64,000 nucleotides of DNA, taken from contig JARVJZ010000004.1 of the NCBI GenBank assembly GCA_029775855.1, positions 1 through 64,000 on the forward strand, written 5' to 3'. The position numbers and the translations under genes are program-made. The notes below the pieces were generated by a model. That model had not been told where the DNA came from. It saw only the letters and a list, made by a program, of their open reading frames with translations, and did not search any database. Of the stretch, positions 5,710 through 39,486 are shown piece by piece; positions within the stretch are counted from its first letter, which is position 1, and each line of letters opens with the position of its first letter. The DNA is from Nitrososphaeria archaeon (lineage in GTDB: Archaea; Thermoproteota; Nitrososphaeria; Nitrososphaerales; JAAOZN01).

Positions 5710-6704
5710 CCCAAAGGTCTAACACGAACAACATCTGGGTTAGCTAAATGTAGCGGAAGCCTTCCTGTAAGCACAGCTACCAAGTTCTCGGCTGCGAGCT
5801 CAGCCATCCTCTTTCTTGTCTCTATAGTTGCACTACCTATATGAGGGGTTAGCAGAACATTCTCAAATTGAAGAAGTGGGCTGTCTTTAGGTAATGGTTC
5901 AACACTATATACATCCAAGGCAACTCCTTTAATCCACCTCTCCCTAAGAGCCTTGATCAAGGCTGCCTCATCTATTATTGCACCTCTTGATGTATTGACC
6001 AAGTATGCAGTAGGCTTCATCAAACGCAATCGCGCTTCATTTATCAAACCCCTAGTCTGTTCTGTTAAAGGTAGATGAATGGTCACGAAATCAGACTCTG
6101 AGAGAAGCTCATCCAATGCAGAATATCTTGCACCAACATCCTTCTCTCTATCTTCAGCGAGCCTATGCCTCTGATAATATAAGATACGCATGTCAAAGCC
6201 TCTAGCCCTTTTAGCTACAGCATACCCTATCCTACCCATACCTACTATCCCCAGAGTCTTACCATAAACGTCAGAGCCTAAGAAAAAGTTAGGCGACCAC
6301 GCAACCCTCCATAATCCACCTCGAAGAAAACGCTCAGCCTCAGAGACCCTCCTCGCTATGCCGAGCAGAAGAGCCCAAGTCAGATCCGCAGTCGCATCGG
6401 TTAAAACATCAGGAGTATAGGTCACATAAATGCCCCGCCTTGTTGCAGCATCGAGGTCAATGTGATCTAAACCCACACTCATAGAACTTATAACCTTAAG
6501 CCTTTTAGCCTTCTCTAATAGATCTAAGTCAAACTTATCAGATAACATACAGAGCACACCATCAGCATCACCTATATTTACCTCAAGCCACTCACTACCA
6601 GGAGGCTCATCACTATCATACAACCTCACCTTAAACCTACTCGAAAGCAAGTTTAAAGCAGACTCGGCTATACGCCTAGTCACAACAACAGTCTCCTTTA
6701 CCAA
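5706..6704 (-). CDS. gyaR: glyoxylate reductase / D-2-hydroxyacid dehydrogenase
   Basis: SVGLDHID, GIVGMGRIG, NTSRGAIIDE, LDVYSVEP and TPHIGSAT motifs. Confidence 0.9.
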   Translation of the reverse strand: MVKETVVVTRRIAESALNLLSSRFKVRLYDSDEPPGSEWLEVNIGDADGVLCMLSDKFDLDLLEKAKRLKVISSMSVGLDHIDLDAATRRGIYVTYTPDVLTDATADLTWALLLGIARRVSEAERFLRGGLWRVAWSPNFFLGSDVYGKTLGIVGMGRIGYAVAKRARGFDMRILYYQRHRLAEDREKDVGARYSALDELLSESDFVTIHLPLTEQTRGLINEARLRLMKPTAYLVNTSRGAIIDEAALIKALRERWIKGVALDVYSVEPLPKDSPLLQFENVLLTPHIGSATIETRKRMAELAAENLVAVLTGRLPLHLANPDVVRVRPLG

Positions 6705-6777
6705 CTACAGCACCACAAACCTAACCAAACACCCATAGGAAAACTTTTAACACCTAACTTTACTAACACCCTTAGAA

Positions 6778-9949: not shown

Positions 9950-11188
9950 TTGCTTAGCAGAGTAACGAAAATAGAGGTCAAAGACACACTGCTGATAAAG
10001 GGTCCAGCTACCCTTAAACTCCAAGATGGTGAAGTTGAAGCCATAGGTATGCGCCTCACATACGAAGAACCCATGATAGTTAGAAGAAACAAGATTGTAC
10101 CTCTTGAACCTATAACTAAACCCGCATATATCATAGCAACCTTCGGACCTAACGGAGAAATCGTCCGCAAGCAAGGTAAATGCGGCACAAAGATCTGGAT
10201 AAAGGCTGCAGAACTACTATCAGCCAACACCCCACATATTAGGAAGATTTTAGTTATTGGTGCATCAGACTCAGGCAAATCCACCTTCACAACTTACCTA
10301 ACTAATCTTGCTATAACAAAGGGTTACAAAGTCGGAATCGTCGACGCAGATATAGGTCAAAGCGACTTAGCGCCACCAGGATGCGTAAGCGGAGCTATAC
10401 TATGTAAGCAGCTAATCGATCTTCGAGATGTTAAAGGAGATGTTATAAAGTTTGTAGGCTCTACTTCACCGATGGGTCTTGAGGATATCGTTATCGAAGC
10501 TGTTAAAGATGTAACGAAGCAGGTTGAAGCCATACACCCCACTTTAATAATAGTTAACACAGATGGCTACATCGATGGTGAAGGTGTTAGATATAAGCTC
10601 AGGTTGATCGAAGCCCTCTCCCCAGACCAAATAGTATACATAGCGTCTGAGCCTCGAAGCCAACTTAAGGAAAGATTGGTAAATACCCTTAGCGAGGAAA
10701 AAGTTCTAACGCTCGAAGGCGTTGAAGGGATAATAAAGAGTCCTAGTGAAAGAATGGAAAGGAGGATGAGCCAGTTCTACCGCTTCCTAAAAAATGGTAG
10801 AGTTCAGCGCTGCAACTTAAAAGATTGTAAAGTGTTTCTCCTGAATAGACAATATACACTTGGTTCAGCGGCTTTTGGAGATATTGGTCAATTGGAGATA
10901 TCTGACATAGCAGACAACACCATCCTCGTGTCTGAAAGCAAGCTTCTTTTACCTAGACTTGCACTAGAAGGGATGTTTGTCGGTTTAGGAGCCAACGGAG
11001 TCAAGGGCTTCGGATGCATCCTGAGCCATAAAGGAAGCGATTCTTTAAATGTCTGGACACCTCTCCAGACCTTCAACACTCTCTATCTAAGTTTCATAAA
11101 ACTGAACAATAGGATATCGAGGGATGAGCGTTTACCCTTCAGATACCTAAACACATATACACCACACCTAGCTAAAGATGATGCGTGA
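9950..11188 (+). CDS. Clp1/Nol9-family polynucleotide 5'-hydroxyl kinase
   Basis: GASDSGKST P-loop, DADIGQSDLAPPG, NTDGYI and ERMERR lid motif. Confidence 0.9.
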   Translation: MLSRVTKIEVKDTLLIKGPATLKLQDGEVEAIGMRLTYEEPMIVRRNKIVPLEPITKPAYIIATFGPNGEIVRKQGKCGTKIWIKAAELLSANTPHIRKILVIGASDSGKSTFTTYLTNLAITKGYKVGIVDADIGQSDLAPPGCVSGAILCKQLIDLRDVKGDVIKFVGSTSPMGLEDIVIEAVKDVTKQVEAIHPTLIIVNTDGYIDGEGVRYKLRLIEALSPDQIVYIASEPRSQLKERLVNTLSEEKVLTLEGVEGIIKSPSERMERRMSQFYRFLKNGRVQRCNLKDCKVFLLNRQYTLGSAAFGDIGQLEISDIADNTILVSESKLLLPRLALEGMFVGLGANGVKGFGCILSHKGSDSLNVWTPLQTFNTLYLSFIKLNNRISRDERLPFRYLNTYTPHLAKDDA

Positions 11189-11520
11189 TAATAGAAGAAG
11201 AATTCAATACTAACTTAAGAACATTCAGAATAAGGCTCTTAAAATATACAAATGGCTGTATACTTTCAGTCTCAGAGGGAAGTGAAGATCGAATAGGGGG
11301 GATCTACCTCATACTAAAGCAGGAGAAAAACATAAGCTCCACAACTATAATACCTGAAAGGTATGGTGGTGTTTTATTAGAAGTCTTAGCGCAAAGCACA
11401 GCCAGATACACAAAAGGTATAATTCTGACAACACTTTATCTGAAGAACACGCTAACATCAGAAGAAGCGTCAACAGTATTAAATAAACTCGAAAACATAT
11501 TATCCAAACTCACTCCTTAA
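11185..11520 (+). CDS. small conserved archaeal protein, possibly proteasome-assembly-chaperone (PAC4)-like
   Basis: 4-bp overlap with the clp1-like gene; NGCILSVSE..RIG pattern. The functional call is tentative. Confidence 0.5.
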   Translation: MIIEEEFNTNLRTFRIRLLKYTNGCILSVSEGSEDRIGGIYLILKQEKNISSTTIIPERYGGVLLEVLAQSTARYTKGIILTTLYLKNTLTSEEASTVLNKLENILSKLTP

Positions 11521-12429: not shown

Positions 12430-13071
12430 TTGCTTGACCAAATTTTGTTCGGCTTTGCGGCTGTAGTAGCATTCATACTATCTTGCTCTATTTTGGTTGC
12501 CGTTCTCAAAAATTTATGTATTCACAGGGTGTTATGGCTCTTATCGTTTATTCTGCTCTTTGTCCTAACAACATTGATTTCTCTAAGTGGGTTAGATGTG
12601 ATTAGCGCACCGTTTGTCTATCTTCTGGCATCTCTTATACCAAGTTTCCTAGCTTGTGGCTTGATTTATGCTACGCTTGGATCGCGGTGGGGCAAGTATT
12701 ATCTGACCTATACGCTATTGCTCTTCATAGTATTTACTTACGCTTCAATAGTTGGCGGTATACCAAAAACTCCTCTGATACTGCTCCTTCATGTGCCAAG
12801 TGGTTTTATCATAGTCATTTTACCGTTCGTGGCGGTTGTTCTTAGAATAAGTGAGTTAACAGCTTTGTTTGTCAGTATTGGCGGTCTGTTAATAGGTGTT
12901 GGAGGGGTTGCTTTGGCTACTATCCAATTTGGTGCACCTCTCTTACCGCAAGAGTTAGTAAATATGGTATTTGCTCCTCTTTTCTTAATTGTCACTATTA
13001 TGTTTGCAGCTGGGATGCTCTTAACTAAGAACTGGGGTCGACCAAAAGGGCTTAATGATCTAAGGAGATAG
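12430..13071 (+). CDS. hypothetical polytopic membrane protein (~7 TM)
   Basis: 213-aa ORF, almost entirely hydrophobic segments. Confidence 0.75.
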   Translation: MLDQILFGFAAVVAFILSCSILVAVLKNLCIHRVLWLLSFILLFVLTTLISLSGLDVISAPFVYLLASLIPSFLACGLIYATLGSRWGKYYLTYTLLLFIVFTYASIVGGIPKTPLILLLHVPSGFIIVILPFVAVVLRISELTALFVSIGGLLIGVGGVALATIQFGAPLLPQELVNMVFAPLFLIVTIMFAAGMLLTKNWGRPKGLNDLRR

Positions 13072-13099: not shown

Positions 13100-13795
13100 T
13101 TGGTTATAGGCTTGATTAAGGTAGAGGTGCTCTTCACATCGTCAGCTATAGGTACTCAGATTTTACTCAAAGGTGAGGAAGAAGACATTCTTGTAGATGC
13201 AGGAGATGGTGTGCTGAGGGATCTTGTATCAAGAAACTATGACTTCTCCAGGTTAAGTGGTATTTTAATAACACATGAGCATATAGATCACTACTGCGGT
13301 CTTCTCCCCTTATGCTACTTTATGGCTCAGCTTGAGCACACTAAACCACTTAGAATAGTTGCACCTAGTGGGGGTGGGAAAGTGTCTGGTCTAGTTTCTC
13401 TTTCCACTTTGCTCCCTCTCTTAGAGGTAGAACGAGCTAAACCAAACTGTACAATCGTCATCGGTTCATTTACTATTGAGCCGTTCAAGGTTGACCATAC
13501 TGTAGATGCTGTTGGATACGCTGTATCTGACAAAGGGGGCTACAAAGTGGTTGTTAGCGGGGATACAAGAGTGTGTCCTGAACTGGAAAAGCAGTTATCT
13601 AAAGCTAATGTAGCAGTTCTCGATGCAACATTCCCAGATTGTATGGAGTCTGATGCATACCTACACGGGCACATGACCGAGGGACAAGCGTTAAAGATTG
13701 CCGCTTCTGTGGAAGTAAAGATATTCATTCATAAAATGGATCTTAACTACTATAAGAAGATGAGCTGCAGAAAGCGTTCCCCTCTTGAAATCTAG
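13100..13795 (+). CDS. MBL-fold metallo-hydrolase (RNase Z/PhnP-like)
   Basis: LVDAGDG, THEHIDH, VDH, SGDT and GHMT metal-binding motifs. Confidence 0.85.
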   Translation: MVIGLIKVEVLFTSSAIGTQILLKGEEEDILVDAGDGVLRDLVSRNYDFSRLSGILITHEHIDHYCGLLPLCYFMAQLEHTKPLRIVAPSGGGKVSGLVSLSTLLPLLEVERAKPNCTIVIGSFTIEPFKVDHTVDAVGYAVSDKGGYKVVVSGDTRVCPELEKQLSKANVAVLDATFPDCMESDAYLHGHMTEGQALKIAASVEVKIFIHKMDLNYYKKMSCRKRSPLEI

Positions 13796-14501
13796 TCTTT
13801 TTGTGGGCTAAGATGGTGATAGTGTAGAAATTGTAGTTGCTGAGCTTTTTCCAAAGCGCTTTACTCACAACTTTTGCTGAAAGACCGCTTAGATTTATTG
13901 CTTTAAAGTAAGAGTTTTGTGTGATAGCACCTGAGAGGCATCTTGACCATAAAGCTGAGTCCTTCTTATACTCTCTTGGTAAACGTTTGTCGGTAACTAT
14001 ATCAGAAATGACCACTACTCCGCTTCTTTTTAGGATTCTACTCAATTCGCTAAAGACTTTAGATTTAGATTTCGTTAAGTTAATTACACAATTAGAGATT
14101 GCTGCATCTATACAGGAATCTCTTATCGGTAAGTAGGCTATATCTCCCAGAATAAACTCAATCCCTTGCAATCCTCGTTTCTTGCATATTTCTTGTGCTT
14201 CAACCAACATTTTTTCTGTCATATCTACACCTATAACAAGGCTAGATGAGTCAAGTTTCTCTGCGACTTTAGCTAAGTCGTAGCCAGCACCGCACCCTAA
14301 ATCCAATATTCTAATATTTGATGTCGAAGTCATCCCTAGGTTTAGTGTTGGATCACCACAACCGAATGATAAGTTGCTAGTAGAGCTACAGCACGTCTTT
14401 TTTGAGACTAGCGATTCATAAGCAGTTCTTACTGCTAACCTTATGTCTGAACTGTCTGATTGTTTACAGCATCGAGTCAAAGTCAAGATTCTTCTCACCA
14501 T
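13743..14501 (-). CDS. arsM: arsenite S-adenosylmethionine methyltransferase
   Basis: N-terminal CC, SFGCGDP, LDLGCGAG, GVDMT, ISNCVINL and WSRCLSGA, covering all conserved As-binding Cys positions of ArsM/AS3MT. Confidence 0.85.
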   Translation of the reverse strand: MVRRILTLTRCCKQSDSSDIRLAVRTAYESLVSKKTCCSSTSNLSFGCGDPTLNLGMTSTSNIRILDLGCGAGYDLAKVAEKLDSSSLVIGVDMTEKMLVEAQEICKKRGLQGIEFILGDIAYLPIRDSCIDAAISNCVINLTKSKSKVFSELSRILKRSGVVVISDIVTDKRLPREYKKDSALWSRCLSGAITQNSYFKAINLSGLSAKVVSKALWKKLSNYNFYTITILAHKKTRFQEGNAFCSSSSYSS

Positions 14502-15216
14502 ATTTAGCCCTAGACTTCATATATGAGTCAATTATCAACCTATACTTACTCATATCTGGGGTATAGCACGGGTATCTAAATCCAACTTGCATAGATGTTG
14601 AAACAGCGGTTTTAAATACAGATGCTATCACCTGTGTCACCTCAGAGCTTGTAGCACCATTTTTTAAAGCCCGCTCGCTAAAGACTTGGATGCCGTGTTT
14701 CCAGCCTTTAACAGCACTTACGGCTAAGCAGAGTAAGTTTTGCAGCCGTTCTTCCAGCGATGTTTTCTGAAATATGATTTTGATTGTTGTTAAAAAATCT
14801 TGGAACCATTTCGGATCGAAATCGAGGAAAGCGAGCATTTTTGCCGGCAAATTAATCTGGTTCGTGTATCCAAAAGACTTCGCATGATCTTGATATTCGA
14901 AGTTAAGTTGCTGAAGTGTATAATCCAAATCAGCTAAGCCAATGATCAAAGAAGATATTCTGATAGCATCATTTATCTCCGCTTCATTAGCTCCTGCACT
15001 AAGAGCTTGATCTACGTGGATCAAGACCCCTGGTTCCCAGAGGTATGCTACTGCTTTACCTAGCCCGATTAGATGCTTTTCCTTAGCTGTAAGTGTGCAA
15101 GAGTGAGGCCAATTTAGAACAGACATTATGTAGGCGTTTACCCATTCGGAGTCATCTATCAAACCTTTAGCCCAAAGATAAGGGGGCACAGGCATCCCAA
15201 TTTTTCTGCTACGCAA
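14464..15216 (-). CDS. tandem carboxymuconolactone decarboxylase/AhpD-like domain protein
   Basis: Two repeats (LTAKEKHLIGL...HVDQALSAGANEAEI and LEERLQNLLCLAVSA...ERALKNGATSSEV). No CxxC. Confidence 0.75.
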   Translation of the reverse strand: MRSRKIGMPVPPYLWAKGLIDDSEWVNAYIMSVLNWPHSCTLTAKEKHLIGLGKAVAYLWEPGVLIHVDQALSAGANEAEINDAIRISSLIIGLADLDYTLQQLNFEYQDHAKSFGYTNQINLPAKMLAFLDFDPKWFQDFLTTIKIIFQKTSLEERLQNLLCLAVSAVKGWKHGIQVFSERALKNGATSSEVTQVIASVFKTAVSTSMQVGFRYPCYTPDMSKYRLIIDSYMKSRAKYGEKNLDFDSML

Positions 15217-15237
15217 TGGACTCTACATCATTATCCT

Positions 15238-16644
15238 CTACTGTTTTTTATTTAATGTTTTCCAGAACTTGTCTTCTAACCAAGTATTCTTGAAACCTAG
15301 GGTTGTAAGTAAAACCGTCAGAGCCCATAGAATAAGAGTCCTAATGAAGCCTTTTTTCTCAAAGCGTCTAGCTGACACAATAACAGGCGCTTTCACTGTA
15401 ATAAGCCTACCGACCTTCTTAAGTTTTTGTGAAAGTGCTACTCCTTCTTCCATACAATTTTCGTCGAACCCTCCTAGTTGATAAAATAGATGTCTCCTAA
15501 CACAAAAGGCCGCACCAACTCCATGGAGATTAAATATCTTGCTTATCATAAGTCTAACGCTTTTAACAAAATTGTATCGTGTTCTAGGTGGATCATAAAA
15601 TACATCTAGGCTTCCGGCAACTACTGCCTTATCCTGAAAGGACTTAATGACCTCTTCTACTGCTCTCTTTTGTAGCACCATGTCTGCGTGGAGGAATAGG
15701 AGTATTTTACCTCTCGCACCAAAGGCACCTATGTTTTCTTGCATCTTTCTTGAGGCTTTCCCTAAAACAACAACTTTGTCCACAAGATTGGCGGCGGCTT
15801 GTAGCGTATTATCTTCGCTCCCTCCGTCAACTAATATCACCTCAACCTCGTGGTTATCCTTATCTATAGACTTCAAAGCACTTCTAACCCAAAATTCTTC
15901 GTTTAAAGTCGGTATAATTATAGAAAGAGCGTACTTATTGGTAGAAGGAGGCGTTGGGTAAGACATTAGAAAGCGCTCGGTAGCAGTGTTAAGTTTCTTT
16001 CTTCTAAGAGAAACACGTAACAGATCGTCCACATCATCAATATCCATTTTTACATCCAAAATCTTAAACGGTAAAGCGTGAGTGCGCGCATATTCAATCA
16101 AATTGAAACAAACTCGATAAGAATCGTCTAAATTGCTTATACAATTTAGGTCTGTATACCTATTCAGTCCGATCAAATATGCTCCACCATCATGAGTTGG
16201 GCCGATTACGAGCTGCGGTCTTCTGAGATTGGAAGCTGAGACTAAACAATCAAGTGCCATACTTAATGTGGATGCATCTAAATCATCGTGATCTCCAGGT
16301 ATGAGGATAACGGAATCATATCCTTGGTCTATAACCTGTTGGAATGCGTTGCGCACCCGCTCAGTGATATCTGAGCCTACTTGCTCCATAAAAGTTGAAT
16401 AAAAAGACAGGGAACCCAAGGCTTCTTTAAGATTTTTCTGTTTCTCCTTAGGAGTATAGCATATATAGGTAGAGCTGCCCCTTTTTCTGATCACAGCTTG
16501 TATAACAGATGCAGTATCTCTTAGTAGGTGATTATAGAGTTGGTAAGCGTCAATTGCCGTGAATATACCCCAATACTTGGAGATTCTGGTTTTCACTGCA
16601 CCCACTTCGGGAACTTTGGTGAAGAGTATGATAGCTTCTTTCAC
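15238..16644 (-). CDS. fusion of DUF2064/TIGR04282-like (CofC-like) and TIGR04283-like (GT2) arsenosugar-associated glycosyltransferases
   Basis: N-half: FTKVPEVGAVKTRI...EQVGSDITERV...IGPTHDGGAYLIG...DIDDVDDL. C-half: SIIIPTLNEE...VDGGSEDNT...LFLHAD...VSARRFEKKG. Confidence 0.85.
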   Translation of the reverse strand: MKEAIILFTKVPEVGAVKTRISKYWGIFTAIDAYQLYNHLLRDTASVIQAVIRKRGSSTYICYTPKEKQKNLKEALGSLSFYSTFMEQVGSDITERVRNAFQQVIDQGYDSVILIPGDHDDLDASTLSMALDCLVSASNLRRPQLVIGPTHDGGAYLIGLNRYTDLNCISNLDDSYRVCFNLIEYARTHALPFKILDVKMDIDDVDDLLRVSLRRKKLNTATERFLMSYPTPPSTNKYALSIIIPTLNEEFWVRSALKSIDKDNHEVEVILVDGGSEDNTLQAAANLVDKVVVLGKASRKMQENIGAFGARGKILLFLHADMVLQKRAVEEVIKSFQDKAVVAGSLDVFYDPPRTRYNFVKSVRLMISKIFNLHGVGAAFCVRRHLFYQLGGFDENCMEEGVALSQKLKKVGRLITVKAPVIVSARRFEKKGFIRTLILWALTVLLTTLGFKNTWLEDKFWKTLNKKQ

Positions 16645-16700
16645 TCTGGCACCATTCAGTTTGCTGACTAAGAATTTATTTAAGTGTTAATTTCGGCGAT

Positions 16701-18020
16701 ATGTTATTGAATATTCAGAAGTATTCGCAAGAGCTGCTAATTCTTAACTGGGGCGTTGTTATCGAGATAGCGCTACTTTTATTTAGATTTTTTACCAGAA
16801 TGGATAGGACTAACCCTTTAACTACGATTTTATTTTATGTGCCGTTTGTACTGTTTTGTTTGGCCTACATTCATCTTACTAAAATGAAAATAATGAGATT
16901 TAAGCTATCATCAGCACTGATACTATTTTTTAGTTTTCTTTTTTCTATTACACACATACTTGATGCGCCGAATTTATCTGATGACCTCTACCGCTACTAC
17001 TGGGATGGTAAAGTCTCCTTTAGTGGTATTAACCCGTATAGTTTTGCTCCTGATTCACCTAATCTCTCCCATTTACGTGATGATTATTGGCTGTTCATAA
17101 ACAATAAGGATTTAACAACACCCTATCCACCTTTCATTATAGCGCTCTGTGCTTTACTCTATTTGCTCTCACCTAGCATCTACAGCTTTAAGGTTCTATC
17201 CGTAGTCAGCTACTTTCTGTCTTCCGTGATTCTTATCTTAATGTTAAGAAGATATAGTCGGAGTCCGTACTACTCCCTTATTTATACATGGAATCCGCTT
17301 ATGGCGATAGAATTTGGGCATAGTGGTCATAATGATTCTGTCGCTGTATTCTTTATGCTTCTTAGCACATTCTTTCTCTCCGCTAAACAGTACAAATATT
17401 CAGCGCTGACGCTTGGAGTTGCTACTTTATCGAAGATCTTCCCAGCTTTATTAACACCATTCTATATAATAAAGTGGAGGCTAAAAGGTATGATCGTCTA
17501 TATATCAGTAGTTATTCTGCCCTATATTCCACTAAGTCTAATAGGCTCCGTACAAACAAGTCTTGTTACTTACTTTGAGAGAATCGCATTTAACGCTGGC
17601 TTCTACTACCTTCTAGAAGCAATAATTTCTTATTTTATTAAAGAAAATGCGGCGCTCTACGCGCGTATCACCATCACTATATTATTTAGTGTATGTCTGG
17701 TCTATATGACCTATAAGTTCAGAGAAAAAGACTTTCTATTTAACGCGTATCTAATAATAGCTGTTTATCTACTTCTCACACCTACCGTGCACCCTTGGTA
17801 TCTTTCTTGGATTCTTCCTTTTGCTGCATTATATGCACCAGAACCTTGGTTGTATTTCTCAGGTGCTATCTTCTTATCCTATTATACATATTCTCTACCA
17901 GAGATATCACCTGGTTTCTGGCCGGAGCAAGTTTGGGTAAGAGCGGTTGAATACATACCGTTTATGCTCTTACTTTTACTTTCATTAAGAAAAGAATTAT
18001 CTGGAGCTAATCGCGGTTAA
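16701..18020 (+). CDS. GT-C fold glycosyltransferase family 87 (DUF2029-like)
   Basis: LSDDLYRYYWDG, INPY, PYPP, WNPL..E...SGHND and PTVHPWY motifs; multi-TM. Confidence 0.9.
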   Translation: MLLNIQKYSQELLILNWGVVIEIALLLFRFFTRMDRTNPLTTILFYVPFVLFCLAYIHLTKMKIMRFKLSSALILFFSFLFSITHILDAPNLSDDLYRYYWDGKVSFSGINPYSFAPDSPNLSHLRDDYWLFINNKDLTTPYPPFIIALCALLYLLSPSIYSFKVLSVVSYFLSSVILILMLRRYSRSPYYSLIYTWNPLMAIEFGHSGHNDSVAVFFMLLSTFFLSAKQYKYSALTLGVATLSKIFPALLTPFYIIKWRLKGMIVYISVVILPYIPLSLIGSVQTSLVTYFERIAFNAGFYYLLEAIISYFIKENAALYARITITILFSVCLVYMTYKFREKDFLFNAYLIIAVYLLLTPTVHPWYLSWILPFAALYAPEPWLYFSGAIFLSYYTYSLPEISPGFWPEQVWVRAVEYIPFMLLLLLSLRKELSGANRG

Positions 18021-18025
18021 GAATC

Positions 18026-19570
18026 TCATTTTTCCTTTCCGCTTTGGATAAATGTAAATATGTTGACAAATGTATATGCAGTGGTATACCAAGCAAGTAT
18101 AGGTATGATTCCAAAGTTTTCTGTTATGAAAGCTATGTAAGAGCTTGTTATGCCAAGAGCTATATAAGCCCATTCTATTAGAACCCTTTTATCAACGGGC
18201 ACATGGTATTTCTTATCTCTCCATTTATCTCCTTTTGACTTCACCGAGTATTTGGGTGTCCTTTTAAACTCCCACCTTCGTTTTAATATTAGACCTTTTA
18301 AAACCTCAATGGTGTTGCTTATACTGATACCGTATCCTATTAAGCCCAAAAGAAGTAGGTTAGGTATATTCCTCAATAAACTCAGTTTTTGTGCGCGCAA
18401 GGCTTCTACATAATAAACCCAAGTAGCGGCTGTACAAAGAATTATGGTAGATGCTAGTAGCATTATGGCTATCTGCTGGATATTTATGGAGCTCACGGTA
18501 GATACAAACTGCTCTGGGCTAGACAGCCCTATTTCACTTATTTGTCTAATAGTTGGTAGAGATATGCTTGTGACACCAGATATACTCGCTATTGATGCGA
18601 GTAAAAAGGCTAGAAACATAAGGAAATGGACGGTATAGTAGGTTAAATGTATGAATCCTTGTATCTTCTGCTTCAGATCTAACATTGGGTTGGATAAGAG
18701 TTTCGGCAAGAGTTTCCGAGCTGTCTGTATGGAGCCGCACGCCCATCTTGCCTGCTGTCTCTTAAAGCTGGTTAAGGTAGGAGTAACTTCACCGTCGACA
18801 CTAAAATCTCTCAAATATAACACCTTATATCCCTTAAGTTGTATCCTATAGCTAGCATCAAGATCCTCTGCTAATGTGTCGCTGTGCCATCCCCCTGCTT
18901 CCAAAAGAGCAGATCGCCTGATTACCCCTGCACTGCCATTAAAATTTAGCAAGCATCCCGAGGCATATCTTCCGGGTTGCTCTATGTAGAAGTGAGCATC
19001 CATTCCGATGGAAACAGATTTGGTAATTGGATTGTAATGCCTGTTTATATGCCCCCATCTACACTGTACAAGACCTATCTTTTCATTTTGGACCATGTAT
19101 GATATAGTTCTGTTGAGAAAATCTTTTGGAGGTGTGAAATCTGCATCGAATATTGCAATAAACTCTTCATCTGTTTTGGAGAGAGCTTCTTGTAGTGCCC
19201 CTGCTTTATACCCTGTTCTATCCTTTCTTCTCAATACTTCGATATTGAAACCATCTCTGGCATATCTTGCTATAAGTGAGTCAACGATCTCTTTGGTCTC
19301 ATCATCAGAGTCGTCAAGAACCATGATTCTAACCAATTGTTTACCATATTGTTCAGCCATAGCGGTGCAGCAGGTAAGGAGCCTACATATCACATACCTC
19401 TCATTATAAATTGGCAGATGTATTGCCACGCGCGGCCTTGAAGATAAACCACTATTGAACGGCATTGAATATTTTCTTGATGCCTTAAGCAGATAGAAGC
19501 AGTTATAACCATAAAAGAAGAATGAGAATGTTACCATTAGAGATGCAATTAACAAGATTCTATCGAACAT
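18026..19570 (-). CDS. cellulose-synthase-like GT2 glycosyltransferase
   Basis: LPIYNE, DDS, GYKAGAL, FDADF, TLAEDLD and QQARW (D,D,D,QxxRW); C-terminal TMs and FKRTPKY. Confidence 0.92.
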   Translation of the reverse strand: MFDRILLIASLMVTFSFFFYGYNCFYLLKASRKYSMPFNSGLSSRPRVAIHLPIYNERYVICRLLTCCTAMAEQYGKQLVRIMVLDDSDDETKEIVDSLIARYARDGFNIEVLRRKDRTGYKAGALQEALSKTDEEFIAIFDADFTPPKDFLNRTISYMVQNEKIGLVQCRWGHINRHYNPITKSVSIGMDAHFYIEQPGRYASGCLLNFNGSAGVIRRSALLEAGGWHSDTLAEDLDASYRIQLKGYKVLYLRDFSVDGEVTPTLTSFKRQQARWACGSIQTARKLLPKLLSNPMLDLKQKIQGFIHLTYYTVHFLMFLAFLLASIASISGVTSISLPTIRQISEIGLSSPEQFVSTVSSINIQQIAIMLLASTIILCTAATWVYYVEALRAQKLSLLRNIPNLLLLGLIGYGISISNTIEVLKGLILKRRWEFKRTPKYSVKSKGDKWRDKKYHVPVDKRVLIEWAYIALGITSSYIAFITENFGIIPILAWYTTAYTFVNIFTFIQSGKEK

Positions 19571-22205: not shown

Positions 22206-22964
22206 TTACCCATTGTCGTCTCTAGTTAATTCCATAAGTTCCTCTATATTCTTAGGCTTCAGAATCAGCTTATCCTTTAATCTAATTCCCATTGGTATTT
22301 CCTTTATATCATTTAGCGATTTGAAGATTGGTGGGAGAGGCTCTCTCGACCCTAAAAGTAGTAAGGCTTTATCCTCATCGTACGGGATTATCTTCTTCTT
22401 TTCACCCTTTGGTTTGAATACAACTGATGGGTTAGTTAAGCTTGGGTTTGGTAAGTCCTTTAGTTGTTTGACAGAACCATACTTTTTGACTAGATTCTCC
22501 ATTGTATCAAAGTCTAGAGCTCTCATCGGGCAAGCTAAGACGCATACAGGCTTAAGACCTTCTTCAAGTCTATCGATGCACATTGTACATTTATTAGCCT
22601 TAACGTCATTAGCTAACCTATCGCTCTCGTATGTTATGGCTCCATATGGGCAAGCTCGTTGGCAAAGTCTGTAACCTTTGCATTTTTCTTGATCTATCAG
22701 AACCGCGCCGTATTTCTCTTCTTTATATATTGCACCGTTAGGACACGCATCTATACAGACGGGATTACTACAATGGAAGCAGGTTACCCAGCGTATATGA
22801 GTTTTGATATTGGGATAATATCCCTCCTCATATTCGTAGATTCGAAGATATTTTATTGGCCCCGGTTTCAAGTCATACCAATCCTTACAAGCAACTACAC
22901 ACGCCTTGCAGTTAATGCATCTATCTTCGTTAAAGTAGAAGCCATATTGGACCATATCGCTCAC
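22206..22964 (-). CDS. DmsB-like 4Fe-4S dicluster subunit (15 Cys)
   Basis: Four Cys groups, with group III CKGYRLCQRACP missing its second Cys. 4-bp overlap with the upstream molybdoenzyme gene. Confidence 0.92.
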   Translation of the reverse strand: MSDMVQYGFYFNEDRCINCKACVVACKDWYDLKPGPIKYLRIYEYEEGYYPNIKTHIRWVTCFHCSNPVCIDACPNGAIYKEEKYGAVLIDQEKCKGYRLCQRACPYGAITYESDRLANDVKANKCTMCIDRLEEGLKPVCVLACPMRALDFDTMENLVKKYGSVKQLKDLPNPSLTNPSVVFKPKGEKKKIIPYDEDKALLLLGSREPLPPIFKSLNDIKEIPMGIRLKDKLILKPKNIEELMELTRDDNG

Positions 22965-25636
22965 CTCAACTTTTGTACCTCAACAACACTTGTTACTGGG
23001 AATGAACCAGATGGGCTCATCGAATCATATGTCAACACATTACAAGCACCTCTGCTATCCATGCCAGCTGGGTTTGGTGTAAACCAAGCACCGTGCCAAA
23101 CTGCTACGACGCCAGGCATAATCTTTGCAGTCACATAAGCCGGCAGTATTATTTCACCGCAATCGTTGAATACTCTAACCAAATCACCATCCTTGATACC
23201 TCTAGCTTTTGCGTCAGAGACACTTATCCATACTGAGTGTCGATACGCCTCCTCATCTAGCATAGGGTTGGTATCGTATGCTGTGTGAGATCTGTAGCGG
23301 CTATGCGGTGTTATCATTGTTAATGGATACTTATTTGCCAATGGGCTGAACATCATGTGCTCTGGTGGAATATATTTTGGAATAGGTGGTACATATCCAC
23401 CGTATTTTGTTTTAGTGAGATCAGTTTTAGCCAAATACTCTGAATATATCTCGATCTTTTTAGATGAGGTATTTGCGAAAGGTTTTCCTTCTTTGACTTC
23501 AACGCCATATGAATAAAGTGGTTCTGGAAAATCAAAGTGGTAAACCACTTGCTTCTTGAAGTCTTCCCAGCTAGGTAGGGTTCGCCCAATATTTGCTAGA
23601 CTTTTTGCTCTTGCTTCCCACGCTGCTTTAAGAAGCCTATCTTTAGTTTCTTCCCATTTGGAGTCATCTGTGTAATTGGGGTTGAATTCTTTGAGGAAGC
23701 CCATCTTCTCCGCTAGCTTTGTAAATATCCAATCTGGTTCTTTTGCCTCTCCTTGAGGTTCAACACATTTAGGAGAGTAGACCCACCAGCAACCCGATAT
23801 ATTCCCCCAAGGTGAATCTATAGTTGTAGTTTCAAATGGTGTTTCGACTACTGGTAATATAACATCAGAATACAGTGCAGTAGGTGTCATATGTATTGCG
23901 AAGTTAACGACATAATCAACCTTCTCAAGCGCCTTTACACCCTTTAGAATGTTCATGTTTCTGTTCAGATATTGACCGATTGCGTTAAAGATCATCTTGA
24001 TATTAGGTAAGGGGTTAGTTGCAGGATTACCTATTATGCTATTGTACTGCTCGGCAGTCAACGATTTACCAACCTCGTCTCTAAGAAGTATGGTATCAGC
24101 CCACTTAAACTGCTTAAAAGCTATAATTGTCTTTTGTTTTCCACTTCCACCCCAGCTAGCGCTTGGTGGACTTGGGGCTCTATCGCTCTCAATAGCCCAA
24201 TTAGTGGTGTTAATGTATCCACCCGGTACACCGATGTTTCCAGTTAAAGCTTGAAGCGCTATTGCAGCTCGAGCAACGTTTTCACCGTATTGATTTCTTG
24301 CTGGAGCCCAGCTTTTGAAGAGGCAGACAGGCTTGCTTCTCGCATATAAACGTGCAAAGCTTCGTATGGTTTCAGCTGGCACACCGCAAATCTTTTCAGC
24401 CCACTCTGGAGTTTTTGGTACACCATCCTCAACTCCTGTGACGTAGTCCTTCCACTTCTTAACCCCTTCTGGTTCAACAAACTTTTCGACATATTCTTTA
24501 TCATATAAGTCTTCAGTAAAGAGCACATATGCAACCGCTAAAGCAAAAGCAATATCTGTACCTGGTCGTATTGGGATCCATTGGTCTGCTAGTATGTCTA
24601 TAGTGTTAGTGTATTTGGGATCTATCGCTATTATTGGAGTGCCTTTCTTTTCTTTGATAAGTTTCATAAGATATAAAGTGTTTGTGCCAAATATTGTGTT
24701 TGCAGGGTCGTGCCCCCATAGAACTATTAGATTTGAATTAATCATGTCTGTTGTCTGATGACCTTTACCATAAGTTATACCCAACATATGGTTCTCGCTA
24801 AAGATCTCTGCCTCAAAAGAGCAAACACCCCAGCTATCGACTGTGTCAACAATGTGACTAAAGAATCTTGAGGCTCCTCTCTGCCATATAGAATATGGCC
24901 CATATTTCTCTTTGACTTCCTTAATCATCTTTGCGACTAAATCTAATGCTTCATCCCAGCTAATTCTTACAAATTTTCCCTCTCCTCTCTTTGTGCCCTC
25001 CACTCTTTTCATTGGGTACTTTATCCGATCTGGATTGTATATCCAATATTTCAGTGCACGCCCCCTTACACAAGGACGCTTTTGGACGATCGCGTTTATT
25101 AGCTTGTGATAATCAAGCAACTCATCTTCAATCGCTACGTTTGAATGGAGTAAGTCGTCTCCTTCGATAGCTGTAATAACACCGTTCTTAATTCTTGCTT
25201 TAAGTAGACAACCTCTGCCACCGCAGTTAATTGTGCAACTACCATAGCTTATGGTTTCTTGTTGGTGTTTTGCTGCTAGTTGCTGTTTTATGGCTTCGAC
25301 TCTTTGTTTGATTTCTGGTGATAGGGGTGGTTTTAGGCTTGGTGGTGGGGGTGGTGTTTGAGTTACGGTTGTGGTTGCTGTTTGAGTTACTGTTGCTGTT
25401 TGTGTTACTGGTGTTGTGACTGTCGTTGTCTGTGTTACTGGTGTTGTTACCGTCGCTGTTTGTGTTGTGGTTCTGGTCTGTGTTACTGTTGCTGTGACTG
25501 TCTTTTCAACCTCTCTGATAGGTGTGAGAAGCCTATCAGCACCAACACCAACCGCAACACCAGCTACAGCAGAAGCAGCTAAAGCGCCAGCCCACTTCAA
25601 CATAGAACGGCGAGAAACCTTAACCTCCTCACCCAA
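22961..25636 (-). CDS. Tat-exported DMSO-reductase-family (DmsA-like, Ser-ligand) molybdoenzyme with Thr-rich stalk, copy 1
   Basis: SRRSMLK Tat motif, CTINCGGRGC...PCVRG FS0 motif, WGVCSFE, IRPGTDIA and C-terminal molydopterin-dinucleotide domain (DAKARGIKDGDLVRVFN). Confidence 0.93.
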   Translation of the reverse strand: MGEEVKVSRRSMLKWAGALAASAVAGVAVGVGADRLLTPIREVEKTVTATVTQTRTTTQTATVTTPVTQTTTVTTPVTQTATVTQTATTTVTQTPPPPPSLKPPLSPEIKQRVEAIKQQLAAKHQQETISYGSCTINCGGRGCLLKARIKNGVITAIEGDDLLHSNVAIEDELLDYHKLINAIVQKRPCVRGRALKYWIYNPDRIKYPMKRVEGTKRGEGKFVRISWDEALDLVAKMIKEVKEKYGPYSIWQRGASRFFSHIVDTVDSWGVCSFEAEIFSENHMLGITYGKGHQTTDMINSNLIVLWGHDPANTIFGTNTLYLMKLIKEKKGTPIIAIDPKYTNTIDILADQWIPIRPGTDIAFALAVAYVLFTEDLYDKEYVEKFVEPEGVKKWKDYVTGVEDGVPKTPEWAEKICGVPAETIRSFARLYARSKPVCLFKSWAPARNQYGENVARAAIALQALTGNIGVPGGYINTTNWAIESDRAPSPPSASWGGSGKQKTIIAFKQFKWADTILLRDEVGKSLTAEQYNSIIGNPATNPLPNIKMIFNAIGQYLNRNMNILKGVKALEKVDYVVNFAIHMTPTALYSDVILPVVETPFETTTIDSPWGNISGCWWVYSPKCVEPQGEAKEPDWIFTKLAEKMGFLKEFNPNYTDDSKWEETKDRLLKAAWEARAKSLANIGRTLPSWEDFKKQVVYHFDFPEPLYSYGVEVKEGKPFANTSSKKIEIYSEYLAKTDLTKTKYGGYVPPIPKYIPPEHMMFSPLANKYPLTMITPHSRYRSHTAYDTNPMLDEEAYRHSVWISVSDAKARGIKDGDLVRVFNDCGEIILPAYVTAKIMPGVVAVWHGAWFTPNPAGMDSRGACNVLTYDSMSPSGSFPVTSVVEVQKLR

Positions 25637-25655
25637 ACAACATCAACTCTTGCTC
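25250..25655 (-). repeat. 406-bp inverted repeat, left copy
   Basis: Exact reverse complement of 32619-33024 when read base by base; identical shadow ORFs in the ORF track. Confidence 0.97.
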
Positions 25656-25671
25656 AGATACACACTATAAG

Positions 25672-25685
25672 TATTTAAATCTTTC
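25672..25685 (-). promoter_or_regulatory. BRE/TATA promoter of molybdoenzyme copy 1
   Basis: Minus-strand GAAAGATTTAAATA, with the TATA starting 24 bp outside the repeat edge. Confidence 0.6.
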
Positions 25686-25837
25686 AAATATATGTATAAA
25701 AATTTTAGATAATATTTTTGAACTTAATCTTAAGTAGAAAGGAATATCTAAGTGTATAACGTTCGCTGTAAACTTGCATTACGCGCAATAGCCAAAACAA
25801 TTATCTAAAAGTGTGAGTAAAATATGGTGTATAAAGA

Positions 25838-27247
25838 TTGATAATAGTGTTGGTTAACCCACCTTTTACACTTAGTGAATGTTTCCGAGGTTTTGCAAGA
25901 GTTGGCAGTATACAGCAGCCGCTTGGTCTTGCTTATGTGGCGGCTGTATTGGAGGAGGCTGGGTATAATGTTAAGATTATCGATTCGCCGGTGTTAGGAC
26001 TGAGTTTACAAGAGACTGTCGAGACTGTCATTAGAATGAGACCAGATGTCGTCGGAATTACTGCCACCACTCCAACTTTCAATAGGGCTATTAGCTTAGC
26101 AGAAAGTCTAAAGAAGGTAGCTGATATACCACTAGTTATCGGTGGGCCGCATTCTACTACACTCCCTGATGAAACCCTAGCCCTTTCCTGCTTTGATATA
26201 GCGATCATAGGCGAAGGTGAATACACAATGCTTGAATTACTTAAATGCTTGCAAAAAGGTACATCTTTATACGAAGTTAAAGGGATAGCGTTTAAAGAAA
26301 GGGGACAGATAGTAAAGACTCCTCCTAGAGCATATATAGACGACCTAGATGCGCTTCCTTTTCCAGCGCGCCACCTCCTTCCACCTTTAAAGTATTATCA
26401 CCCTACTCCTTCTGCTTATCGCTCATTACCACAGGCTACAATGATTACAAGTAGAGGTTGCCCCTACCAATGCACCTTCTGCGACCGTTCAGTATTTGGA
26501 AACAAGTATAGAGCAAGAAGTCCCAAGAATGTAGTTGAAGAAGTTGAAGAACTCGTCTACGAATATAGGGCAAAAGAAGTGAGGTTTTGGGACGACACAT
26601 TTAACATCAACAGAAAAAGAGTTCTAGAGATTTGTAGAGAAATGCGGATGCGAAGACTAGACATAAGCTGGACATGCCTATGTAGGGCAAACTTAGTAGA
26701 TGAAGAAATGTTACGTGAAATGGCCAAGGCTGGGTGTTGGCAAGTAGAATATGGCATAGAATCCGGTAACGAGGAACTTCTTAAAAAGATCGGTAAGGGA
26801 ATTACTCTCCAACAAATTAAGGGCGCAGTAGAAAAAACTAAAGCCGCGGGTATGAAGGCCCGAGGTTTCTTTATGCTGGGCTTACCTGGTGAAACTGAGC
26901 AGACTCTCAGACAGACTATAATCTTCGCAAGGTCCTTAAAGCTGGATGCTGCTGTCTTCCACATTACGATCCCCTTTCCAGGAACAGACCTATATCTAAG
27001 CGCTGTCTCCAGTGGCGAACTACGCACTGACTTAAACTACCAATATTATTTGATGTTTGGCTCAGATGAAGTCCCATATATACCAAAAGGGTTAACTAAA
27101 GAAGTACTCTTGAAGTATCGGTCAATAGCATATAAGTCATTTTATCTAAGGCTAAGTTATATGCTAGAACAGTTAGCTTCTGCAAGATCTCTTAAAGATT
27201 TATTTCGATACCTACTTGGTTTTATAACCCTAGCGCGCATCGAGTGA
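25838..27247 (+). CDS. cobalamin-binding (class B) radical SAM protein
   Basis: NPP...PLGLAYVAA B12-binding domain, GGPH, GEGE, TSRGCPYQCTFC, DDTF, GIESG and PFPGT. Confidence 0.93.
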   Translation: MIIVLVNPPFTLSECFRGFARVGSIQQPLGLAYVAAVLEEAGYNVKIIDSPVLGLSLQETVETVIRMRPDVVGITATTPTFNRAISLAESLKKVADIPLVIGGPHSTTLPDETLALSCFDIAIIGEGEYTMLELLKCLQKGTSLYEVKGIAFKERGQIVKTPPRAYIDDLDALPFPARHLLPPLKYYHPTPSAYRSLPQATMITSRGCPYQCTFCDRSVFGNKYRARSPKNVVEEVEELVYEYRAKEVRFWDDTFNINRKRVLEICREMRMRRLDISWTCLCRANLVDEEMLREMAKAGCWQVEYGIESGNEELLKKIGKGITLQQIKGAVEKTKAAGMKARGFFMLGLPGETEQTLRQTIIFARSLKLDAAVFHITIPFPGTDLYLSAVSSGELRTDLNYQYYLMFGSDEVPYIPKGLTKEVLLKYRSIAYKSFYLRLSYMLEQLASARSLKDLFRYLLGFITLARIE

Positions 27248-27254
27248 GCCTAGT

Positions 27255-27944: not shown

Positions 27945-27962
27945 CCTGATCTAACTTCCTTC

Positions 27963-30006: not shown

Positions 30007-30009
30007 ATC

Positions 30010-32526: not shown

Positions 32527-32585
32527 TACAAGCCTATCTTTTATATTTTTCCTTGGTTGTCGCTAAATTTTTTGTTTATTTTGTT

Positions 32586-32600
32586 TAAATATTTATATAT
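32586..32600 (+). promoter_or_regulatory. TATA promoter of molybdoenzyme copy 2
   Basis: TAAATATTTATATAT, with TTTATATA starting 27 bp outside the repeat edge. Confidence 0.55.
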
Positions 32601-32618
32601 TAGCTCTACTTTGATTTA

Positions 32619-35328: not shown

Positions 35329-35336
35329 GAGGTGGT

Positions 35337-38160: not shown

Positions 38161-39486
38161 CTATCGACGATAAAGGTTATTGTAAACACAGAAAGGAATA
38201 AGTTTATCATCCAGAACCACATGTACGCAGCACTTCATACATCTTTTCAAATCGAAGTTCCAAGCATCCTGAAAAGAATGAACTTGTATACTCATAACAT
38301 TATCTATCAAGTTCGTACTTGCGGAGCAGCAACATCTTATGCTATCTAACACATGCTCTGAACCAGGTGTAGCAGACATACTCCAAAGTTTATCAAGCGC
38401 CGCTGCCACCATCGGATCTTGATGCTTAGGTCTCTCACCATACGCACCAAGATATTCTGAAACGTCGCAATAGCGTGTCAAGGGGATGAGGTGCTCACCA
38501 GTATTGAACGTATATGTTAACGCACTGCAATGGCTGTCTGGACACGGAACAGGTATGAAGTCCGAAGCATGAATCTCTCTGTTTGTATGCTCCACTATCG
38601 TTCTGATAATGTCAGGTGCAGTTATGCGATGTAGAGGATTCAAAAATTCTTTTCTCAATCTACCAACAAAGGCTATCGGTGTAAAGATCAAACCATCAAT
38701 CCGCATCTTCTTAGCAAAATCTAAGATATGCCCTATCTGTAGATCGTTAACCCCTTTTACTACCGTGACACTTAGACTGATTTTTAAGCCGGCACACTTG
38801 GCCGCATCTATTGCTTTTTTCTTCAAAGAGAGAAGGTTTGAGCCGCGCATAAACTGGTATACATCGTCGTTAAGCGAGTCAAAGGAAAGGCTAAGTTCTT
38901 TTAGCCCTGCCTTTGAAAGTTCGTAGGCTAAACCAGGATTTCTAGCCAAGTTCACTCCATTTGAGTTTAAAGTTATGTTTGCGTAGCCGAGCTTATGTGC
39001 TTCAGCAACAAGATCTACAAGATCGGATCTTAATGTAGGTTCTCCACCAGTTATGACAAGACTTGGATTTTCACATTCACAGCTAGAAAGAAACCTTAAC
39101 CTATTTACCAGATCCTCTAATGTAGGTTCCTCACCAGCCATATTTGAAGATGCATAGCAAATTGGGCAGTTTTGGTCACATCTCCCTGAAACCTCCAATA
39201 GTCCAACACAAGTATGCTGTTGATGCTCAGCACAAAGACCACAGTCCCAAGGGCAACCTAAATTTTTAGAAGTAGCGTAGCGTTTTATAAGATACTTCTT
39301 TCCTGTCTGATTATATTTCTCAGCATTACGGTAGAAGTCAGCATCACTACATATAAGAGATTTTAACATCCCATGCTCTGGACATTCTTTGGCCATATAT
39401 ATTTGAGAATCTTCTTGATATATTCTAGCTTTTATTAAAGTGTTGCAAAAAGGGCATAGGCTATAGGTATCGCCTTTTGATTCCAA
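38161..39486 (-). CDS. COG1964-family radical SAM protein (Tes/Mss/TrsS-like)
   Basis: N-terminal CPFC...CPEHG, GCPWDCGLC..H.QHTC, CDQNCPIC and C-terminal FQDAWNFD.KRC.KCCVH...IPFCVYN. Confidence 0.88.
   Translation of the reverse strand: MESKGDTYSLCPFCNTLIKARIYQEDSQIYMAKECPEHGMLKSLICSDADFYRNAEKYNQTGKKYLIKRYATSKNLGCPWDCGLCAEHQQHTCVGLLEVSGRCDQNCPICYASSNMAGEEPTLEDLVNRLRFLSSCECENPSLVITGGEPTLRSDLVDLVAEAHKLGYANITLNSNGVNLARNPGLAYELSKAGLKELSLSFDSLNDDVYQFMRGSNLLSLKKKAIDAAKCAGLKISLSVTVVKGVNDLQIGHILDFAKKMRIDGLIFTPIAFVGRLRKEFLNPLHRITAPDIIRTIVEHTNREIHASDFIPVPCPDSHCSALTYTFNTGEHLIPLTRYCDVSEYLGAYGERPKHQDPMVAAALDKLWSMSATPGSEHVLDSIRCCCSASTNLIDNVMSIQVHSFQDAWNFDLKRCMKCCVHVVLDDKLIPFCVYNNLYRR

Follow-up and report, generated by a model that had tools for sequence, protein, structure and literature searches.

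We analysed a 64,000-nucleotide stretch of DNA (the window), positions 1 to 64,000 of contig JARVJZ010000004.1 in GenBank assembly GCA_029775855.1, from a Nitrososphaeria archaeon whose genome measures 1.51 Mb and is 98.4% complete (98.44%). The window holds a gene cluster built around a fusion gene, which joins a DUF2064 domain to a family 2 glycosyltransferase (GT2) domain. A first-pass annotation had read this cluster as arsenosugar-type: a unit of the fusion gene, a tandem CMD/AhpD gene and an ArsM-like methyltransferase gene, with a divergent GT87 gene and a flanking QxxRW GT2 gene. An open reading frame check recovered all five genes at the coordinates of Table 1, and family scans and motifs bear out every item of that layout. 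What is new here is an archaeal module in which GT87-like, tandem CMD, B12-binding radical S-adenosylmethionine (SAM) and Tes-like radical SAM genes surround the fusion gene. As judged from its sequences, the cluster is not a classical arsenosugar cluster but a relative of one, with other radical SAM enzymes in the place of ArsS.

Table 1. Genes of the cluster and its flanks in the window, with the match or motif that characterizes each. MBL, metallo-beta-lactamase; PNAG, poly-N-acetylglucosamine.
Coordinates	Strand	Feature	Match or motif
12430..13071	+	Polytopic membrane protein, 213 aa, about 7–8 hydrophobic segments	No Pfam/NCBIfam match
13100..13795	+	MBL-fold metallo-hydrolase, RNase Z-like short form, 231 aa	Lactamase_B_2 74.2 bits; HEHIDH motif
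13743..14501	-	Divergent ArsM-family SAM methyltransferase, 252 aa	NF008823 176.8 bits
14464..15216	-	Tandem CMD/AhpD-fold protein, 250 aa	Pfam CMD 45.1 bits, two stretches
15238..16644	-	DUF2064 (TIGR04282-like) + GT2 (TIGR04283-like) fusion, 468 aa	Pfam and NCBIfam
16701..18020	+	GT87-like polytopic GT-C-type glycosyltransferase	Pfam GT87 26.1 bits
18026..19570	-	Processive-type membrane GT2 synthase (cellulose/PNAG/chitin-synthase kind), 514 aa	Glyco_trans_2_3 79.4 bits
19590..20990	-	Membrane protein, 466 aa, 11 segments	No Pfam/NCBIfam match
25838..27247	+	B12-binding radical SAM enzyme, 469 aa	HpnJ 244.4 bits; CPYQCTFC at residue 208
38161..39486	-	Tes/TrsS-like radical SAM enzyme, 441 aa	TrsS 348.7 bits, Tes 330.5 bits

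The fusion, CMD and methyltransferase genes follow one another on the minus strand with a gap of 21 nt and then an overlap of 38 nt, and so form one transcription-type unit. Just 56 nt separate the fusion gene from the divergent GT87-like gene, and the MBL hydrolase gene is convergent to the unit at its other end. The arrangement goes beyond chance, because the same neighbours recur around fusion relatives of 34–43% identity in other archaeal lineages.

The N-terminal half of the fusion protein matches Pfam DUF2064 at 65.8 bits and TIGR04282 at 112.5 bits over the full model (cut-off 134). The C-terminal half matches TIGR04283 at 156.8 bits over model positions 1–217 of 221 (cut-off 182), and a single terminal hydrophobic segment spans residues 433–451. 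In an AlphaFold2 model of the protein (pLDDT 91.9), two GT-A domains are followed by a terminal helix. The half with DUF2064 has a GT-A fold of the MobA/CofC kind, and its top PDB structural match is 3CGX (template modelling score, TM, 0.82 by target); for the GT2 half, the structural matches are to GT-A enzymes of no particular kind. A profile search of the PDB with the fusion protein also returned DPMS 5MLZ (E 1.6e-11).

Relatives of the fusion form an archaeal clade of about 40 proteins (468–489 aa, 33–61% identity), one of them named as from Nitrososphaerota; bacterial fusions come after this clade at about 30% identity. The gene is very patchily distributed. No full-length copy is present in the 60 nearest relatives of the host, which include three species of the same genus, or in 400 further genomes sampled from the phylum; one of the latter (G257) has a partial GT2 match, adjoined only by a generic methyltransferase gene. 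Among 301 genomes sampled from the class Bathyarchaeia, the high-scoring fusion clade occurs in four (G062, G063, G613 and G536, the last with a broken copy), and about 21 more carry separate, lower-scoring halves.

The first-pass annotation had called for a survey of archaea for the same cluster. The module does recur, in 13 archaeal lineages besides the window, but ArsS accompanies it in none of them. These lineages represent 25 archaeal-clade loci from genome and metagenome contigs, dereplicated at 90% nucleotide identity. Partial matches (L104, L114, L125, L131) are left out of the lineage counts, as is L105, a duplicate of the bacterial locus L022. Partner counts are minima, and many of the contigs are short. 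A GT87-like gene follows the fusion gene in 6 of the 13 lineages. Tandem CMD and B12 radical SAM genes are each found in five, the 514-aa GT2 synthase gene in four, and the ArsM-like, MBL and Tes/TrsS-like genes in three each. Reciprocal best matches confirm orthology for the B12 radical SAM, TrsS-like, CMD, MBL, GT87 and GT2 proteins. The longest arrangement, of the L094/L098 type, runs in the order fusion, GT87, B12 radical SAM, CMD, MBL, ArsM-like and TrsS-like, with 35 nt between the last two genes; contigs of G613 show the same fusion, GT87, B12 radical SAM order. One locus from a Bathyarchaeota metagenome-assembled genome (MAG), L021, has its B12 radical SAM gene (6037–7438) and its fusion gene (10001–11410) split into two or three frames, which are probably assembly indels and not pseudogenes.

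Two radical SAM enzymes thus recur in the module. The B12-binding enzyme finds its best NCBIfam matches in HpnJ (TIGR03471, 244.4 bits against a cut-off of 577.6) and BchE (203.2 bits). Its orthologues, 41–55% identical, adjoin fusion, GT87 or CMD genes in L020, L021, the L094 group, L095, L096, L114 and G613. The Tes/TrsS-like enzyme carries a zinc ribbon and two CxxxCxxC motifs, and scores 348.7 bits with TrsS (NF045646, cut-off 490) and 330.5 bits with Tes (NF045702, cut-off 450). In L095, L096, L114 and the L094 group, orthologues with 47–50% identity lie within the cluster; that of the L094 group immediately follows the ArsM-like gene. It shares with Tes/GDGT-MAS the zinc ribbon, both CxxxCxxC motifs, C320, C419 and C433, and differs in its score (318–330 bits against 450) and in the extra cysteines C93, C420 and C315. 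C93 and C420 are specific to five archaeal orthologues (window, L098, L096, L114, L143), C315 is common to the archaeal orthologues and Chloroflexi TrsS, and all three are absent from both Tes proteins of the host genome. These two are true Tes genes (732.4 and 654.8 bits; contig 4, 125245–126696, and contig 3, 119182–120603; L135 and L136), and for this reason the TrsS-like gene of the window is not the lipid synthase. The enzymes of H-GDGT synthesis were also considered; among them, Hbs is an AhbD-like SPASM enzyme and not Tes-like (bioRxiv 10.1101/2023.10.20.563219).

One of the closest known systems is the TrsS cassette of anaerobic bacteria (NF045646 with NF045663 and NF045667). In the literature searched, TrsS itself appears only as a table row among selenoprotein families, in PMC13188914. 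Compared by description, the cassette likewise combines a Tes-like radical SAM enzyme with an ArsM-related methyltransferase, and the location of the TrsS-like/ArsM-like pair near molybdenum oxidoreductases is a further likeness. The window enzyme reaches 348.7 bits where 490 are required and is therefore placed in a sister clade; the cassette, as described, is without the glycosyltransferases, the tandem CMD protein and the MBL protein of the window.

ArsS defines the classical arsenosugar pathway, in which DMAs(III), the trivalent dimethylarsenic made by ArsM, is adenosylated by ArsS and then completed by transferases to an arsenoribose glycoside. The first-pass annotation was right that such transferases co-occur with arsM and arsS in bacteria: ArsS adjoins DUF2064 in 17 of 56 bacterial loci, with ArsM in 9 of them, and it is present in 3 further bacterial metagenome loci of the DUF2064 type. 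The window has in common with the bacterial and cyanobacterial ArsM-ArsS clusters a DUF2064 transferase, a GT2 transferase, an AhpD-fold protein, an ArsM-family methyltransferase and a hydrolase. The profile hidden Markov model search that the annotation had suggested returned TIGR04282, TIGR04283, TIGR04169 and arsenite methyltransferase as best matches, but all of them under their cut-offs, and TIGR04167 (ArsS) was absent. The best of six matches to TIGR04167 in the host genome scores 51.2 bits against a cut-off of 300, at 98.4% completeness, and none of the 25 archaeal-clade loci gave an ArsS when searched by tblastn with an archaeal query. The window also differs in that its transferases are fused, its AhpD-fold protein is a tandem without CxxC, and its hydrolase is of the MBL type; it adds the GT87-like protein, the QxxRW synthase, the B12 radical SAM enzyme and the Tes/TrsS-like radical SAM enzyme. 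With the defining ArsS not found and all four arsenosugar models below cut-off, the cluster does not merit the arsenosugar label. The family resemblances and the ArsM cysteines described below stand; the ArsM-like gene is an extra copy in its genome, and the AhpD-like protein has no CxxC. We consider the classical pathway highly improbable. Its resemblances to TIGR04282, TIGR04283, TIGR04169 and ArsM are real, and ArsS does score over cut-off in 7 of the 301 Bathyarchaeia-class genomes, two of them fusion-bearing, but for the host genome it stands refuted unless ArsS lies in the unassembled approximately 1.6%.

The ArsS enzyme itself occurs in archaea. It is found in 8 of the 301 Bathyarchaeia-class genomes (G062, G063, G498, G545, G553, G563, G628 and G730), seven times over the cut-off. 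In the same sample, a TrsS-like orthologue at 50% identity occurs once, in the fusion-bearing G613. Five genomes have an intact fusion gene. Three of them, the host (G000), G061 and G613, have a TrsS-like orthologue (48–50% identity, 475–491 bits) and no ArsS; the other two, G062 and G063, have ArsS (406–411 bits) and only Tes-level matches, with no TrsS-like orthologue. ArsS is thus present in two, the TrsS-like enzyme in three and both in none. We propose the TrsS-like enzyme as a stand-in for ArsS.

A second tie to ArsS comes from the tandem CMD protein. This family is rare, with 11 proteins at E<=1e-30 in a profile search of 1.84 billion representatives; a word-based search recovered only seven relatives, and the profile search was used instead. 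Among the matches that come next, P0140 (598 aa) is a natural fusion of radical SAM, DUF3641 and tandem CMD parts. At its N terminus it is a true ArsS (TIGR04167, 373 bits, cut-off 300), and its CMD part fits the family profile (E 2.5e-33). P0142 (423 aa) joins DUF3641 to a tandem CMD and is probably cut at the N terminus, and P0225 (565 aa) is a natural fusion of MBL and CMD. These three fusions tie the CMD family and its MBL partner to ArsS-type chemistry. The window protein scores 34.4 bits with the arsenosugar-associated AhpD protein model TIGR04169, under the cut-off of 120. The CxxC motif is absent from it and from seven homologues. Seven homologues linked to the cluster all keep C40, C163 and C217, whereas the ArsS-fused proteins retain only C163 of the three.

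The ArsM-like protein is, by sequence comparison, an ArsM-type protein and a divergent, fast-evolving paralogue. Its best NCBIfam match is the arsenite methyltransferase model NF008823 (176.8 bits, cut-off 263); it also matches the DVU_1556 family (81.4 bits) and the arsenosugar-type ArsM model NF038099 (78.5 bits, cut-off 400), and its top five PDB matches are all arsenic or arsenite methyltransferases. It has a SAM motif and conserved cysteines of the As(III)-binding type. C37, C38, C48, C138 and C188 are invariant across nine aligned ArsM-type proteins, including the canonical ArsM of the same genome and bacterial ArsMs, and align to those of the ArsM structures 5evj and 4kw7. They comprise the CC pair and the cysteines of the GCG-type, SNCVINL and C-x-GA motifs, whose As(III)-binding roles come from the CmArsM literature. 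Four relatives are 58–60% identical; below them the score drops from 309 bits to 160, where the many proteins annotated as arsenite methyltransferase begin. A 51-row tree places the window protein in a starred clade of eight (seven close relatives) on a stem of 1.38. Ordinary arsenic detoxification is encoded elsewhere in the genome, by a canonical ArsM on contig 3 (290.3 bits, cut-off 263) and an Acr3 pump (430.6 bits). No ars operon and no genes of the cluster surround the contig-3 ArsM (L141, 4498–7389 and 8039–8794). It adjoins genes for a 963-aa Eco57I/MmeI-type restriction-modification methylase and a HerA-like ATPase.

The membrane glycosyltransferases and the hydrolase complete the cluster. 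The GT87-like protein has nine hydrophobic segments and a DDLYRY motif at residue 94; its match to Pfam PF09594 is borderline (26.1 bits against a gathering cut-off of 25), and homologues in L020 and L021 score 36.5 and 37.6 bits. The 514-aa GT2 protein has the layout of a processive synthase, with DSD at residue 87, DAD at 142, QQARW at 272 and hydrophobic segments from residue 306. It reaches no specific equivalog cut-off (145.6 bits with the CelA catalytic model, far under cut-off), and orthologues with 50% identity lie in the cluster in L021, L090 and L096. The MBL protein scores 114.7 bits with RNase Z models, far under the cut-off of 292.95. It has orthologues in the cluster in the L083, L086 and L094 groups, with a reciprocal best match from L098, and is a candidate phosphodiesterase of the module.

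Flanking membrane proteins are less securely placed. The gene for the 213-aa protein is a possible module member; apart from the window, it precedes the MBL gene in no loci but the closely related L083–L085 (54–57% identity). The gene for the 466-aa protein, upstream of the GT2 synthase gene on the same strand, recurs in two close relatives alone, L083 and L084. An Atlas structure search gave a fold like that of COX1 (heme-copper oxidase subunit I) at TM 0.75, which is a lead only. Its membership is uncertain, and it may instead be a partner of the adjacent DmsAB unit. An Rfam gathering scan of positions 9000–41000 of the window found no RNA families. Near-identical DNA is present in hot-spring metagenome runs from three studies, one of them possibly the source study. 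In a metatranscriptome library (run X8), four contigs of about 200 nt fall on the MBL, ArsM-like, CMD and 466-aa protein genes; DNA carry-over could account for these, and we do not count them as expression.

Taken as a whole, we read the cluster as the core of a rare, patchy archaeal module akin to the accessory genes of bacterial ArsS/ArsM arsenosugar clusters, one that may provide an ArsS-independent pathway to a metalloid-bearing membrane glycoconjugate, with arsenic as the best candidate metalloid. This reading is tentative: we prefer it to its rivals, but regard it as possible and short of probable. The divergent ArsM-type enzyme would bind a trivalent metalloid, its putative substrate, on the conserved cysteines and methylate it. 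The Tes/TrsS-like and B12 radical SAM enzymes would then carry out a radical carbon-metalloid or carbon-carbon step, as ArsS does in bacteria. The MBL hydrolase and the nucleotidyltransferase-like DUF2064 domain would trim and activate a phospho-sugar intermediate, which the fused GT2 domain might load onto a membrane carrier or acceptor. On the outer face, the GT87-like GT-C enzyme could transfer the product to a lipid or to the glycan of the QxxRW synthase; both GT87 and GT2 may have roles in attaching the product, as the first-pass annotation had supposed. The tandem CMD protein, with three conserved cysteines and no CxxC, would serve the metalloid step as a carrier or helper and not as a peroxidase.

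To our knowledge, ArsS and ArsL are the only enzymes described so far that form carbon-arsenic bonds. In a more specific form of the proposal, which we consider rather unlikely as stated, archaea would have an organoarsenical route independent of ArsS: the TrsS-like enzyme, acting directly after a dedicated ArsM paralogue and together with the B12 radical SAM enzyme, would forge a carbon-arsenic bond on a sugar or isoprenoid lipid, and the fusion, the GT87-like protein and the polysaccharide synthase would place the product in the envelope, giving an arsenolipid or arsenoglycan in hot springs. A full-text search of the accessible literature turned up no characterised archaeal example, as the first-pass annotation had stated. 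It likewise turned up no archaeal arsenosugar-type cluster, no described function for its families and no archaeal organoarsenical pathway beyond simple methylation.

Several observations weigh against the metalloid proposal, beginning with the genes themselves. Family scores all lie below curated cut-offs (TIGR04282, TIGR04283, TIGR04169, NF038099 and NF008823). The radical SAM genes of the window stand 9 kb (B12) and 21.5 kb (TrsS-like) from the fusion gene. The alternation of ArsS and the TrsS-like enzyme is suggestive, not proof, as it comes from five related genomes that are mostly incomplete MAGs. The ArsM-like gene is found in fewer lineages than the GT87, CMD and B12 radical SAM genes, and may be accessory to the module. 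The ArsM-like proteins of L098 and L019 best match the canonical ArsM of the host and not the window copy, and the other cluster-linked ArsM-like proteins also sit on long branches of the 51-row tree, in no single supported clade.

The inconstant ArsM-like gene would suit arsenic-free envelope glycosylation. There, the fusion would make a carrier-linked sugar that the GT87-like protein transfers outside to the QxxRW polysaccharide or to exported proteins such as the neighbouring molybdoenzymes, and the ArsM-like and CMD proteins would be lineage-specific additions. GT87, CMD and the GT2 synthase are frequent partners of the fusion, with the ArsM-like gene in only 3 of 13 lineages, and the cluster adjoins exported DmsAB-type enzymes in the window and L083/L084 and a Psr-like operon in L088. 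DPMS/Ppm1 acting with GT-C enzymes is the standard two-step logic of polyprenyl-phosphate-sugar pathways, which the pairing of GT-A and GT-C enzymes fits. As in pairs of DPMS/Ppm1 with GT87-type PimE-like proteins, a polytopic GT87-like protein here neighbours a GT2 domain of the GT-A type that ends in a hydrophobic helix; the window differs from such pairs in its borderline GT87 match and in the extra DUF2064 domain, which is without counterpart in them. Glycosylation of this kind leaves unexplained the recurring pair of radical SAM enzymes, the MBL protein, the ArsM-type metalloid cysteines, the fusion of ArsS to tandem CMD and the ArsS/TrsS-like alternation, and we place it on the unlikely side.

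Also against the metalloid proposal, the molybdoenzyme and molybdenum cofactor (Moco) genes and sulfur/selenium transporters beside the module point to other chemistries. Positions 22206–36083 of the window hold three molybdopterin oxidoreductase units, two of the DmsAB type and one Psr/Phs-like with DsrO/DsrP-like subunits; DmsA and TorD genes flank the gene for the B12 radical SAM enzyme. The same region also encodes a TorD chaperone, two beta-propeller proteins and a tandem rhodanese. In L088, the Psr-like operon is divergent from the fusion gene. MobB-MobA-MobB directly follows the B12 radical SAM gene in L095 (3210–4993) and L114 (2973–4720), and a MobA-like fragment is next to it in L021 (7588–7908). 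An FmdE-like gene comes after MobB-MobA-MobB in L095. In Chloroflexi (Anaerolineales-type), a coupled operon of TrsS, molybdenum oxidoreductase and DUF2064 genes is found at eight genome loci and in the metagenome locus L112. The long operon is that of genome loci L030, L031, L043, L044, L068, L069, L075 and L076; in L112 the order is PhsA-like molybdenum oxidoreductase, FeS subunit, two unknown genes, HdrD-like dicluster protein, TrsS, second molybdenum oxidoreductase and DUF2064. The last three genes overlap or are 7 nt apart. Three archaeal lineages that are unrelated to one another have TsuA/YeeE-type (Sulf_transp) transporter genes at the side of the module (L071, 8143–9216; L096, 5951–6988; L098, 18540–19592).

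Such surroundings would suit a role in the cofactor or maturation of molybdo- or tungsto-enzymes, in which the MobA/CofC-like DUF2064 domain would work with the B12 radical SAM enzyme and the TrsS-like enzyme, a distant likeness of MoaA, to modify the pterin or mature particular enzymes with molybdenum bis-pyranopterin guanine dinucleotide (Mo-bisPGD). The position of the B12 radical SAM gene at DmsA/TorD and at Mob genes, the translational coupling in Chloroflexi and the divergent operon of L088 all favour this role. It is nevertheless very unlikely, as it has no place for a GT-C transferase, a processive polysaccharide synthase or a membrane-anchored GT2 domain and leaves the ArsM-type enzyme and the ArsS links unexplained. 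It is because of the molybdenum/Moco and TsuA/YeeE contexts, together with the inconstant ArsM-like gene, that we hold the arsenic reading no more firmly than stated above, beside three arsenic-free rivals.

The radical SAM enzymes, taken by their nearest characterised relatives, suggest lipids. If they act as Tes, Hgm, Cds and HpnJ do, the Tes-like and B12 radical SAM enzymes might modify tetraether or diether chains or head groups without any arsenic, with the glycosyltransferases adding or remodelling sugars. Those relatives act on lipids (Tes, 330.5 bits; HpnJ, 244.4 bits), mycobacterial GT87 enzymes have glycolipid substrates, and the module has many membrane proteins. Lipid roles of Cds, HpnI/J, Tes and Hgm are described in PMC13459092 and bioRxiv 10.1101/2023.10.20.563219. 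The hopanoid pathway HpnH-HpnG-HpnI-HpnK-HpnJ, as outlined in PMC13459092, combines a radical SAM carbon-bond step with a GT2 enzyme and a B12-type radical SAM enzyme that remodels the sugar. The likeness to the window is one of analogy: its B12 radical SAM enzyme best matches HpnJ and its GT2 weakly matches HpnI, but at 244 against 578 bits and 40 against 310 bits, with no hopanoid genes and in an archaeal host. Lipid tailoring is clearly unlikely. Two true Tes genes are already present in the genome, the radical SAM scores are far under cut-offs, and the ArsM cysteines, the ArsS-CMD fusion and the ArsS alternation would go unexplained. The module was also found in only 1 of 401 phylum-sample genomes, that of the host, an unexpected rarity if it served a core lipid function.

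The metalloid proposal bears on the origin of the arsenic-carbon bond in arsenolipids, and the module narrows the question to some eight genes of thermophilic archaea that can be put to the test. Since ArsS and a Tes-like radical SAM enzyme alternate between genomes, there is a natural choice of gene to examine first. If the product proves to be arsenic-free, the module would instead represent an envelope or lipid pathway across Thermoproteota, Bathyarchaeia and Geothermarchaeota lineages, linked to respiratory molybdoenzymes.

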